A stretch of 6,553 nucleotides of DNA from a virus (taxonomy: Duplodnaviria; Heunggongvirae; Uroviricota; Caudoviricetes). How positions within the stretch are numbered: position 1 is the stretch's first letter; the number at the start of each line of letters is the position of its first letter. Both the position numbers and the translations under genes were made by a program. The notes under the pieces are model-generated. The model saw nothing but the letters and a program-made list of their open reading frames with translations, had not been told where the DNA came from and ran no database searches. Of the stretch, positions 3,756-6,483 are shown one piece after another. The stretch lies in IMG/VR virus record IMGVR_UViG_2695420808_000003, one strand, 5' to 3'.

Positions 3756-4106
3756 TCACCGGATTCGTTCGCGCGCTGTTTTCGCTTTATGGCAGGGCCA
3801 GCACAGACTCTGCAGGTTGCTGTCTGCGTCTGTTCCGCCATGCGCTTTCGGGATGATGTGGTCGACGGTTTTCGCCTCGCTCACCACACCGACACGCAGA
3901 CACAACTGACACAGACCTTTATCGCGCTTCAGAATACGGGCACGAATCACCGTCCATTTTGAGCCATAGCCACGCTGGTGGCGGCTCAGTCCGCGCTGGT
4001 GCTGCACCCAGCCTTCACCGCGATGTTTATCGCAGTAACCCGAACTGTCTGTGGTTGTACCTGCACATCCACGCTTACGGCAGGCACGTGGGATTAGTGA
4101 TGGCAT
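3756..4106 (-). CDS. HNH endonuclease (terminase-associated)
   Basis: 116-aa ORF with paired cysteines (CRKRGCAGTTTDSSGYCDKH…) and the HNH core …DHIIPKAHGGTDADSNLQSLCWPCHKAK…. ATG at 4106 is preceded by GAGGT at 5-nt spacing. Its position directly upstream of terS matches the HK97 gp74-type HNH/terminase arrangement. Confidence 0.9.
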   Translation of the reverse strand: MPSLIPRACRKRGCAGTTTDSSGYCDKHRGEGWVQHQRGLSRHQRGYGSKWTVIRARILKRDKGLCQLCLRVGVVSEAKTVDHIIPKAHGGTDADSNLQSLCWPCHKAKTARERIR

Positions 4107-4148
4107 AAATACCTCATACCCTGCGAAATGTTTACCACGATAAAAAGG

Positions 4149-4613
4149 CTACTTAATGCACTGAGTGCGGATATACTCCTGTGCCCCTTCCAGTTGCATC
4201 TGCATCGTCATCAGCCGCTCTCTGAGGGTGAAATAATCCCGTTCAGCGGTGTCTGCCAGTCGGGGGCTGGTTGCATTATCCACGCCGGAGGCGGTGGTGG
4301 CTTCACGCACTGACTGACAGACTGCTTTGATGTGCAACCGACGACGACCAGCGGCAACATCAGCGCGCAGAGTTTCATTTTCAGCTTTCGCATCAGCTAA
4401 CTCCTTCGTGTATTTAGCATCGAGTGCATTAACATCACGCTGTCTCTGCTGCATGTCAGTAATGGTTGCGTTCGCCAGCTTCAGTTCTCTTGCGTTTTTG
4501 TCGCGCTGCTCTTTGTAGGTAATGGCGTTATCACGGTAATGATTAACAGCCCATGACAGGCAGACGATGATGCAGATAACCAGAGCGGAGATAATCGCGG
4601 TGACTCTGCTCAT
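4149..4613 (-). CDS. Rz: Rz-like i-spanin
   Basis: Product has an N-terminal transmembrane segment ([23 protein letters not shown]) followed by a long charged, coiled-coil-like periplasmic domain. The ATG at 4613 overlaps the endolysin stop as ATGA; the track's GTG at 4625 would add only four residues. Rz1 is nested in the +1 frame. Closely resembles the Rz proteins of lambdoid/DLP12-type prophages as I recall them. Confidence 0.9.
4211..4393 (-). CDS. Rz1: Rz1-like o-spanin (outer-membrane lipoprotein), fully embedded in Rz
   Basis: 60-aa ORF entirely inside Rz in another frame. Signal peptide with lipobox LVVVGC, then a proline-rich stretch (…[21 protein letters not shown]…). This is the classic embedded Rz/Rz1 architecture. 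Confidence 0.85.
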
Positions 4614-5107
4614 TGCTGCCCCCACAAACAGACTTCACGCTCAATCTCACGACGGGTCATCAGCCCTTTCCATTGCTTACCGCCAGCATATGTCCAGCGA
4701 CGTAGCTGGTCACATGCGCCTTTGATATCGCCCTGGTTTATTTTGCGAAGAAGCGTCGATGTTCTGAAATTGCCAGCGCCCACGTTGTAAACGAACGAGT
4801 AAAGAGCGCCGCGCGTTGTTTCCGGTATATCGACTTTGATGTACGGGTTAATTTGTCTGGCGACAGTGGCAAGGTCTTTATTCAGGAGGGCTTTGCATTC
4901 TGCTTCGGTATACGTTTTACCGAGCATGATGTCTTTTCCGGTGTGTCCGTGACATACAGTCCATACACCAATGATATCTTTGTATAGTATGTAGCTGACA
5001 CCTTCCAGACCATCGTTACCACCTGGGCCAGTGATTAACACAGATGCTATAGCAACAGCCCCACCACCAATAGCAGCTGCAACAGCCTTGCGTAATGATG
5101 GCGACAT
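4610..5107 (-). CDS. R: SAR endolysin (T4-lysozyme-like muramidase, phage 21 R-type)
   Basis: 165 aa. N-terminal weakly hydrophobic Gly/Ala-rich SAR domain ([24 protein letters not shown]) followed by the lysozyme catalytic region (…[27 protein letters not shown]…, Glu-Asp-Thr triad pattern). Start ATG overlaps the holin stop (TAATG). Near-identical to phage 21 R as I recall it. Confidence 0.93.
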
Positions 5108-5322
5108 TATTCACCTCTCGCAGCCTTACGCTTGTCTTCTCTTATTTTGAAATACAGATTTGTCAGATAAGTCAGAAGCCCCAGAAGCAGACTTCCCAGC
5201 ACACCAATCGCAGCCCACTGTGATGGACTGACCTGATCCAACCACTGCAAAAACCAGTAGCCGGCACTGCCGGCGGAGGTGCCGTAGGCAATGCCTGTTG
5301 ATATTTTTTCCATCTGATACAT
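5107..5322 (-). CDS. S: Pinholin (phage 21 S-type class II holin) with dual-start motif
   Basis: 71 aa, [71 protein letters not shown]. Two transmembrane segments and a charged C-terminus. Met1 and Met4 could give the antiholin/holin pair. Sits immediately upstream of the SAR endolysin, as in phage 21 (S21-R21-Rz/Rz1). Confidence 0.92.
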
Positions 5323-5351
5323 ATCCCGCCCCCCGACAGACCTGTGCTATC

Positions 5352-5388
5352 GGAAAGAAAAAAGGCCATCAGCAAAACTCTGATGGCC
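5352..5388 (-). terminator. Rho-independent terminator (minus strand) about 30 nt upstream of the holin gene
   Basis: Perfect 9-bp stem GGCCATCAG / CTGATGGCC (5364-5372 and 5380-5388) with a 7-nt loop. On the minus strand it is followed by TTTTTTCTTTCC (5363-5352). Confidence 0.6.
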
Positions 5389-5498
5389 TGAATCACCTTT
5401 ACCAATATTGTATGAAAAAACACGCACGACTAATTGACAATAATTTTCATTTCCATTAAAAAAGATCGCGTAGCATTCTTAATTCATGAGGAACTTTA

Positions 5499-5566
5499 CC
5501 CGCCAGCAATCTGAGTAGCGAAAGCTGTTCATCCCCAATGTTTTTGCTGGCGGGTCCTTTTTTCTA
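5499..5566 (+). terminator. Hairpin plus T-tract on the plus strand (terminator-like, long loop)
   Basis: 11-bp stem CCCGCCAGCAA (5499-5509) / TTGCTGGCGGG (5544-5554) enclosing a 34-nt loop that itself contains a small AGC-GAAA-GCT hairpin. Followed on the plus strand by TCCTTTTTTCT. Confidence 0.35.
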
Positions 5567-5570
5567 CGGT

Positions 5571-5606
5571 CCTCCTCCCCGGAGGGGGGCATTTCATTAT
5601 TTTTCT
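5571..5606 (+). terminator. Second GC-rich hairpin plus T-rich tail on the plus strand (tandem with the previous element)
   Basis: CCTCC…GGAGG / C4-G6 stem within CCTCCTCCCCGGAGGGGGGC (5571-5590), followed by ATTTCATTATTTTTCT. Confidence 0.35.
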
Positions 5607-6001
5607 AATCGTTACTGGTGAGAAGGCGGAAGAAAAAGCCAGTTCTTCGCCCCTAAATAACAGCATGATTCCAGTCCATGCAAAATCTGATTTCCAGCTC
5701 ACACATACCGAGCGCTGTACAAAAACCGCCAGCCAAGGCAGTTAAGAGTGTGTTCCCGGGGTTTGCTTAGAATATTTTGTAAGTTGTCCGAAGAGATATT
5801 TACAACACCAGAATGATGAATCATCAGTCCCCTGCCAGAGGTTCACTACGTAACCTGACCGACAATGCACCATTCTGGTGCTGAAAAAAGAGCACTGGAA
5901 CTGCAACAAAACAACATCACAGAACAGGAGATGGTAAGGAGTCAGACATTCCCACACAATATTGTGTCAGTGCAAATAACAACCTTCGTCTCAAATCTCG
6001 C

Positions 6002-6076
<75 letters not shown>

Positions 6077-6079
6077 ATA

Positions 6080-6155
<76 letters not shown>

Positions 6156-6157
6156 GC

Positions 6158-6234
6158 TGGCCCACCACCGAGGACTCGAACCTCGCACCGTCAACTTAGA
6201 AGGTTGATGCTCTATCCGGATGAGCTAGTGGTGG
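6158..6234 (-). tRNA. tRNA-Arg (anticodon UCU)
   Basis: Reverse complement is 77 nt, CCACCACTAGCTCATCCGGATAGAGCATCAACCTTCTAAGTTGACGGTGCGAGGTTCGAGTCCTCGGTGGTGGGCCA. Perfect 7-bp acceptor stem, D-stem GCTC/GAGC, anticodon stem TCAAC/GTTGA with loop CTTCTAA, T-stem CGAGG/CCTCG, CCA end. Confidence 0.85.
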
Positions 6235-6235
6235 T

Positions 6236-6312
6236 TGGTGGCCCTTGCTGGACTTGAACCAGCGACCTGGCGATTATGAGTCGCTCGCTCTGACCAACTG
6301 AGCTAAAGGGCC
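6236..6312 (-). tRNA. tRNA with anticodon CAU, most likely tRNA-Ile2 (lysidine type; elongator Met not excluded)
   Basis: Reverse complement is 77 nt, GGCCCTTTAGCTCAGTTGGTCAGAGCGAGCGACTCATAATCGCCAGGTCGCTGGTTCAAGTCCAGCAAGGGCCACCA. Anticodon loop CTCATAA, T-loop TTCAAGT, discriminator A, CCA. Backbone resembles ileX/ileZ-type tRNAs as I recall them. Confidence 0.85.
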
Positions 6313-6412: not shown

Positions 6413-6483
6413 NNNNNNNNNNNNNNNNNNNNNNNNNNNNNNNNNNNNNNNNNNNNNNNNNNNNNNNNNNNNNNNNNNNNNNN
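6413..6483. other. Assembly gap (71 N)
   Basis: Uninterrupted run of n characters in the sequence. Confidence 0.99.

Follow-up and report, generated by a model that had tools for sequence, protein, structure and literature searches.

We propose that positions 5434-5563 on the plus strand of the window (the whole stretch of viral DNA analysed here, 6,553 nucleotides long) form a self-contained small-RNA gene of a lambdoid prophage, and assign this reading, together with the mechanism set out below, a rough probability of 0.55. Judged from the DNA sequence, the element is probably an unnamed sRNA gene with a predicted product of ~95 nt, in the known class of prophage sRNAs that are encoded antisense or convergent to the late operon. 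By detectable sequence similarity, it is outside both the PasA/PasC and the PapR families. This reading is based on sequence features that are strand-specific and selectively conserved, on a surrounding module that is non-coding, and on the match to PasA and PapR in position and architecture; RNA production, the 5' end, Hfq binding and targets are what we infer from this evidence. A plus-strand sRNA antisense to the late operon had been proposed in an earlier note made from the sequence alone. Conservation, the non-coding module and the placement shared with PasA and PapR fit that proposal, and the second of the two terminators that it included is less well supported.

Genomic context, candidate promoter and hairpins

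The window represents the late region of a lambdoid prophage. All genes identified in it, using Pfam and ARAGORN, are on the minus strand, in agreement with the earlier note, whose described features were all found again, within 1-3 nt of the coordinates given. The features referred to in the text are as follows:

Minus strand: genes in the order portal, TerL, TerS, HNH endonuclease, Rz, lysozyme, P21-type holin (Pfam)
5107-5322, minus strand: P21-type (class II) holin, gene 1 of the lysis cassette (Pfam PF04971, E 1.5e-35)
5352-5389, minus strand: late-sense intrinsic terminator, stem 5389-5363 then TTTTTTCTTTC (terminator scan)
5354-5703, no strand assigned: conserved non-coding module, 350 bp (BLAST against loci L002-L005: 5354/5359-5703, 84-88% identity)
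5434-5462, plus strand: candidate sigma-70 promoter, -35 TTGACA at 5434-5439, 17-nt spacer, -10 TAAAAA at 5457-5462
5469-5563, plus strand: predicted primary sRNA, ~95 nt from a predicted +1, with an AU-rich, mostly unpaired 5' part, hairpin 1 and a U-tract
5498-5555, plus strand: hairpin 1 (candidate terminator 1), 12-bp GC-rich stem with arms 5498-5509 and 5544-5555
5556-5564, plus strand: candidate termination signal, CC spacer and T6 tract (T6 at 5558-5563)
5569-5604, plus strand: hairpin 2 and T-rich tail, stem 5569-5590 of 9 bp including 2 G.U pairs, tail ATTTCATTATTTTT (terminator scan)
6002-6312, minus strand: cluster of four tRNAs, CAU, Arg-UCU, Thr-UGU and Gly-UCC (ARAGORN; Rfam tRNA matches of 56-70 bits)

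The candidate sRNA gene points away from the holin, and is convergent with the tRNA cluster, which is upstream in the late direction. In a near-identical locus of E. coli CFSAN029787, the Q antiterminator is followed in order by two hypothetical genes, the gene for a DNA methyltransferase and the tRNAs; an unannotated gap of 679 bp then separates the tRNAs from the holin, and the flagged element sits within this tRNA-holin gap. The tRNA at 6236-6312 (minus strand) was called as tRNA-Met (anticodon CAT) by ARAGORN, and its near-identical copy in CFSAN029787 is tRNA-Ile in RefSeq; it is probably an ileZ-like tRNA-Ile2 with a lysidine-modified CAU anticodon, comparable to those that Stx phages carry in their tRNA clusters. 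Positions 6414-6483, to the right of the tRNA cluster, are a run of 70 N (masked or unknown bases), so that any feature in this segment, such as a tRNA promoter, would be unreadable.

The late-sense terminator at 5352-5389 (minus strand) has a dG of -16.7 (z -5.0 versus shuffles), and its T-tract ends 41 nt upstream of the holin start codon. A comparable sense-strand terminator is also present upstream of the holin at the PasA locus, as well as at other loci with a holin. This terminator probably blocks transcripts from the tRNAs, and other read-through transcripts, from the lysis genes unless Q antitermination is active. The right flank of the module (5607-5703) is also conserved, and contains a weak late-sense terminator-like hairpin at 5663-5681 on the minus strand (GCATGGACTGGAATCATGC then TGTTATTTAG). 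A promoter-like site, TTCTCA-17-AATAAT, is present at 5624-5596 on the minus strand.

The plus-strand TTGACA at 5434-5439, with a 17-nt spacer before TAAAAA, was read from the sequence just as it had been claimed. The candidate promoter matches 10 of 12 consensus positions (6/6 in the -35 and 4/6 in the -10), with the A at -11 present and the T at -7 absent. Lacking this final T in its -10, the site at 5434-5462 was not returned by the promoter scan. TTGACA occurs once in the window when both strands are counted, compared with a chance expectation of 4.2 ± 2.0, and because this count is within chance, the lone hexamer proves nothing by itself.

From the predicted +1 near 5469, a transcript ending at the first T-tract would be ~95 nt long, and one ending at the second ~136 nt. 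The former is close to the ~100-nt transcript with an internal GAAA hairpin that had been suggested, the GAAA loop being at 5520-5523. The predicted RNA 5469-5563 folds with -30.9 kcal/mol (z -3.8). A 10-codon ORF (MRNFTRQQSE, 5486-5518, plus strand) is contained within it, with its ATG and TAG kept in 6/6 variants. This ORF has no Shine-Dalgarno sequence, all changes in it but one are non-synonymous, and it is probably not translated.

Hairpin 1 encloses, within its 12-bp stem, an 8-bp inner stem (5512-5531) capped by the GAAA loop, and a 12-nt internal bulge. Its dG is -28.3 kcal/mol (z -4.9 against shuffles), and its 5' arm holds GCCAGCA, which is also present in the PasA seed. The stem is directly followed by a stretch in which T occupies six of eight positions, as expected for a terminator, and this holds on the plus strand only. 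Two features are unusual for an efficient intrinsic terminator, namely the CC that separates the U-tract from the stem and the 34-nt 'loop'. The terminator scan did not list hairpin 1 because this 34-nt interior exceeds the loop limit of the scan. The T-tract at 5556-5564 is likely the Hfq-binding 3' end of the predicted RNA.

Hairpin 2 passes the terminator scan with an energy no better than that of shuffles (z -1.1). It is the most variable part of the module, with 64% of columns variable; its stem is lost in L002 and L003 and broken in several relatives. Copies that are otherwise identical differ in the length of the G-run at 5584-5589 (plus strand), which has 4 to 6 G, a pattern that fits slippage and a weak constraint. 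Of the tandem plus-strand terminators described in the earlier note, the first stands firmly, being stable relative to shuffles and conserved, and the second is weak, given its shuffle-like energy, varying G-run and disruption in relatives. A role for hairpin 2 as a back-up terminator giving the ~136-nt product is possible.

The orientation of these elements is asymmetric. The T-tracts adjoin the stems on the plus strand only, hairpin 1 lacking one in the minus-strand orientation; G.U pairs, which are A.C on the minus strand, are needed for hairpin 2 and for the inner hairpin; and the 177-nt region folds with a z of -3.1 on the plus strand versus -1.8 on the minus strand.

Spread and conservation of the module

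At 80-100% identity, the module is present in 1,508 records that come from ~1,427 of 5,426 complete E. coli genomes (~26%), and it also occurs in Shigella flexneri, for example in SFBU1023. It matches 1,555 places, of which 643 are on plasmids. A scan of one genome per bacterial species gave, outside E. coli and Shigella, nothing except one chance match, and a phage collection gave no matches. Exact copies of the window variant were found in nine complete E. coli genomes and in many IMG/VR prophage contigs. No prophage occupies the argU/DLP12 site of UTI89, where the module was also sought, and a full-text search of a library of papers found neither a publication containing the element's sequence nor direct evidence that this family is expressed.

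In an ExPEC prophage variant (L002), carried for example by strain IHE3034, the module lies directly upstream of the same holin type. A third variant lies beside iss and an Rz remnant on one examined plasmid, and beside pap operons in chromosomal islands. The fragment consisting of iss, the Rz remnant and the module (3573-4265 in L003, 3694-4268 in L004 and L005) lacks the holin and lysozyme. It is flanked by IS elements, adjoins iro genes on the plasmid, and is ~2 kb from papI in the islands. Because the plasmid and island copies have an identical deletion junction, they represent one ancestral fragment and not independent evidence of selection. As a unit, the module moves between prophages, pap pathogenicity islands and at least one plasmid that carries iss.

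The module appears to be non-coding. No conserved ORF was found on either strand, the frame and extent of ORFs differing in every variant, and no Pfam match was obtained within it. Coding potential was rejected on the grounds that the ORFs differ between variants and that the 'hypothetical protein' annotated by RefSeq in L002 is not intact in the window. A search with the Rfam 15 covariance models gave nothing in 5323-6001 at E ≤1; the PasA and PapR loci themselves have no Rfam model, and this silence is therefore uninformative about a relation to either of them.

Conservation was quantified over 18 unique family modules, by comparing alignment columns with those of the module flanks using the Fisher test. 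The promoter, hairpin 1 and T-tract together vary in 15/98 columns versus 87/201 in the flanks (p 1.1e-6). The promoter block alone varies in 5/29 columns (p 0.008 versus the same flanks), and TTGACA is invariant in 18/18 modules. Only 1/24 columns is variable in the stem arms of hairpin 1, and 2/33 in the arms plus T-tract, compared with 42-45% in the flanks. The T6 run is invariant, the only change in the T-tract segment being a C to T beside the stem that lengthens the U-rich stretch. The same fold is predicted in 6/6 sequence variants.

The earlier note had proposed to look for conservation and covariation of the stems in relatives. Conservation was found for hairpin 1, with its nearly invariant arms, and not for the variable hairpin 2. 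No covariation was seen, the single stem change (G to A in L003) being uncompensated; in a family limited to E. coli and Shigella, with near-invariant stems, there is too little variation for it. The pattern of conservation could partly reflect recent common descent, as the diversity amounts to approximately four lineages with 85-100% identity.

Proposed mechanism and rival explanations

In the proposed mechanism, a sigma-70-type promoter with a perfect -35 and a weak -10 would initiate transcription near 5469 in the lysogen, convergent to the Q-dependent late operon. The majority of transcripts would end at hairpin 1 and its U6, giving the ~95-nt RNA. Some transcripts, a minority, may continue to hairpin 2, which would be no more than a leaky back-up, and reach ~136 nt. 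The predicted product is built like an Hfq-class base-pairing sRNA, with an AU-rich single-stranded 5' part, a strong 3' stem-loop and terminal U's.

By analogy with PasA and PapR, this RNA would most likely act in trans, on host or prophage mRNAs. Predicted duplexes with the holin and lysozyme starts, papI, papB and iss were all within the range of shuffles (z -2.2 to +1.8). Being antisense, the candidate sRNA has perfect complementarity to the tRNA-holin segment of the late pre-mRNA; cis pairing with this transcript would be unavoidable and could matter, and nothing found favours a cis role. The possible regulation of holin or tRNA expression is a weaker part of the proposal in the earlier note, the known analogues working through Hfq on host mRNAs in trans. 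A narrower version of the trans reading is that the element encodes an unnamed, Hfq-dependent sRNA of a third, sequence-distinct, holin-adjacent antisense type, carrying a PasA-like GCCAGCA seed in its terminator stem and exported together with iss to plasmids and pap islands. We put this forward tentatively, with the odds rather against it. A PasA-like seed would be expected to favour targets containing UUGCUGGC.

Pure insulation is the main rival to an sRNA gene, and accounts for the terminator and not for the conserved promoter. It supposes that hairpin 1, perhaps with hairpin 2, is a one-way terminator that halts plus-strand transcription arriving from the lysis and structural region before the tRNAs and Q region while late sense transcription passes; there would be no dedicated sRNA promoter, and a short RNA would be a by-product. 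The terminator is indeed strictly unidirectional, and no part of the module is better conserved than its stem arms and T-tract. The -10 is weak, and a lone TTGACA is no more than chance would give. In related prophages, genes such as iss/bor and a hypothetical ORF of 90 aa between lysozyme and ydfR lie on the plus strand left of the holin, and transcripts from them would run in this direction. However, the -35 to -10 block, with its invariant -35, is conserved relative to the flanks (5/29 vs 87/201 variable columns, p 0.008), the window contains no identifiable plus-strand gene to the left, and the analogous terminator of PasA ends a discrete, abundant, Hfq-dependent RNA. We regard insulation alone as unlikely, at roughly the level of one chance in a handful.

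Retaining the RNA and changing its function, one may suppose a cis-antisense regulator that pairs with the overlapping late transcript between the tRNA cluster and the holin, leading to RNase III or RNase E cleavage or to transcriptional interference, and so damping leaky holin and lysis expression in lysogens or timing lysis, on the model of OOP RNA acting on cII in lambda. Complementarity is perfect by construction, the holin start lies 112-241 nt downstream of the element in the late direction, with the late-sense terminator close after the element, and a holin-adjacent position is common to three unrelated-looking sRNA types. We nevertheless consider this quite improbable, given the documented trans targets of PasA and PapR and the lack of special complementarity to the holin and lysozyme start regions in local checks. 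The whole module also persists without holin and lysozyme beside iss on the plasmid and in the pap islands, a weak argument in that these copies share one ancestral junction. A functionless remnant is the explanation to which we give least credence: the element would be what is left of a plus-strand 'moron' gene, or of an older PasA- or PapR-like sRNA, linked to the lysis cassette. The region is a mosaic, with the L002 module followed by a 5'-truncated PapR-like 3' end; hairpin 2 is decaying; the plasmid and island copies derive from a single fragment; and the family is young and narrow, being limited to E. coli and Shigella. Against decay, the promoter, stem arms and T-tract are conserved above adjacent sequence of the same module, and the fold is kept in all variants.

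Comparison with known prophage small RNAs

A close architectural parallel to the proposed sRNA gene is PasA of EPEC E2348/69, for which Pearl Mizrahi et al. 2021 (PMC8550237) provided validation by Northern blotting, dependence on Hfq and RIL-seq. PasA starts at 743499 on the minus strand; its major species of 85 nt ends at 743415 and its minor one of 236 nt at 743264, and its flanking genes are arranged '> < >' (PMC8550237 Table S6). The neighbours in RefSeq are a sialate esterase and a class II holin, both on the plus strand, and PasA is antisense to both. Its major and minor 3' ends (PMC8550237), together with our reading of the locus, indicate that PasA ends at two tandem terminators. The first has the 5' arm GCCAGCAC with CGAAAG in its loop, and the second is ~150 nt downstream. 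Upstream, the locus contains TTGACA, 17 nt, TCAGAA and 6 nt before the mapped 5' end (7 nt after the hexamer), and the holin is separated from the sRNA promoter by a late-sense terminator. According to Zhu, Shabalina and Storz (2026, bioRxiv 10.64898/2026.05.13.724894), a longer transcript may be processed to give the 5' end of PasA, which makes the promoter parallel suggestive and not proven. The EHEC homologues of PasA and PasC are EcOnc51/52. PasB is not relevant here, as it is located between tail genes I and J.

The window element resembles PasA in most of these respects. Both run antisense to the late operon, with a P21-type (class II) holin immediately downstream in the late direction; the element at 5434-5563 (plus strand) lies between the tRNA cluster and the holin at 5107-5322 (minus strand), as PasA lies between the esterase gene and its holin. 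Both have TTGACA, a 17-nt spacer and an A-rich hexamer, with TTGACA ~30 nt before the RNA start; an RNA of ~85-95 nt, predicted in the window, ending in a stem-loop and U-tract; a terminator stem that encloses a CGAAAG loop and has GCCAGCA, a stretch of the PasA seed, in its 5' arm; a second terminator downstream, a weak candidate in the window, which in PasA gives the minor longer species; and a late-sense terminator between promoter and holin. In contrast, the stem is 12 bp with a 34-nt interior in the window, and 8 bp with a 17-nt loop in PasA; the upstream neighbour is a tRNA cluster in the window, and a sialate esterase gene in PasA. In addition, 643 of the 1,555 places of the window module are on plasmids, whereas Pas matches are almost all chromosomal (Zhu et al. 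2026, bioRxiv 10.64898/2026.05.13.724894).

Zhu et al. define the PasA/PasC family by blastn-detectable nucleotide similarity. Over the sRNA, blastn with a word size of 7 detected no similarity between the window element and PasA or PasC, which places it outside the family by that definition. An nhmmer profile built from ten window-type genes found PasA loci only at E ≥5. Shuffle-calibrated global alignments that excluded the -35 and T-run gave z values of 1.0-1.7 versus PasA/PasC and 2.1-5.2 versus a PasA-2-like variant; including these anchors, alignments to PasA types gave 3.2 and 7.7. The PasA seed GCCAGCACCU and the window 5' arm GCCAGCAAUC match at 7/10 seed bases in the same structural position. 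The matches from a scan of viral contigs for the pattern GCCAGCA...CGAAAG...TGCTGGC fell cleanly into a PasA type of 33 nt and a window type of 50-52 nt, with no intermediates among the scanned contigs. Since neither BLAST nor nhmmer shows similarity, homology searches seeded with Pas sequences would probably miss the element.

PapR of UPEC UTI89 (Khandige et al. 2015, PMC4546395), which is the E2348C_1409-1408 IGR sRNA and EcOnc08/21/42, provides a second positional parallel. Its published primers (PMC4546395) map to 3848-4027 of locus L006, on the strand opposite the late genes, between a tRNA cluster and a class II holin. PapR, like the window element, therefore lies in a lambdoid prophage between the late-region tRNA cluster and the class II holin, on the antisense strand. 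Both PasA and PapR act in trans on host mRNAs with the assistance of Hfq (PMC8550237, PMC4546395). The intrinsic terminator of PapR is soon followed by a CCCCTCCGGAG(A)GGGG-type hairpin comparable to hairpin 2 of the window; this CCCCTCCGGAGAGGGG hairpin beside PapR is part of a convergent STnc100 copy, and an Rfam scan did not detect STnc100 in the window. PapR is ~180 nt and divergent from a DUF1737 gene, whereas the RNA predicted in the window is ~95 nt. Alignment of the two gave a z of 1.8, BLAST and nhmmer showed no homology between them, and by sequence the element is not a member of the PapR family. PapR contains a 22-nt region complementary to papI, whereas duplexes of the window RNA with papI mRNA were no better than shuffles (z -0.02 to 0.45).

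In the ExPEC prophage L002, positions 4380-4520 (plus strand) hold the seed and terminator of a PapR-like sRNA truncated at its 5' side, and then a CCCCTCCGGAGAGGGG hairpin, on the same strand as the element and ~230 nt downstream of it. This arrangement suggests that the tRNA-holin gap is a mosaic of antisense sRNA modules. L006 carries two full STnc100 copies (RF02076, 161 and 136 bits) at 4027-4236 and 4514-4704 on the minus, late-sense strand. The first is back-to-back with the PapR terminator, forming a convergent sRNA pair as in Tree et al.

Among 76 loci with a holin 87-100% identical to that of the window, nine carry a window-type element and three a PapR-like one, and an antisense terminator upstream of the holin is absent in the remaining loci. 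The idea that an antisense sRNA-like element is a general feature upstream of this holin was rejected by this survey. The idea of a remnant of IpeX or the nmpC/lc 3'UTR was also dropped, as no homologous locus contains porin-related sequence or annotation.

A more distant parallel is the OOP RNA of lambda, a short, constitutive, terminator-ended antisense RNA in a lambdoid phage operon that can direct cleavage of the sense mRNA. It has another locus and another target (cII), and no sequence relation to the window element. In EHEC lambdoid prophages, Hfq-bound sRNA genes convergent to late transcription occupy the 'moron' region (Tree et al. 2014, PMC4104026). These include AsxR and AgvB, which, with the convergent EcOnc sRNAs, are short, Hfq-bound and convergent to Q-dependent late transcription downstream of pR' (PMC4104026). 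AsxR and AgvB differ from the window element in being 51-60 nt, in adjoining stx or moron genes and not the holin, and in sequence. Their Rfam families (RF02702 and RF02703) had no match in the window region.

In pathogenic E. coli, prophage sRNAs such as PasA-D, PapR, AsxR and AgvB link core regulation and virulence to DNA gained by horizontal transfer. If the window element is a terminator only, it is an ordinary insulating feature. If it is expressed, the catalogue would gain a widespread sRNA gene, carried by ~26% of complete E. coli genomes, Shigella, at least one iss-bearing plasmid and pap islands. Were the narrower trans-acting reading true, about a quarter of sequenced E. coli, with ExPEC lineages and Shigella among them, would carry an unannotated, possibly virulence-linked regulator. 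Expression of the element would also support the stretch just upstream of the holin as a recurrent landing site for interchangeable antisense sRNA genes. As a candidate alongside PasA and PapR, the element adds to a known class and is not a new kind of element.
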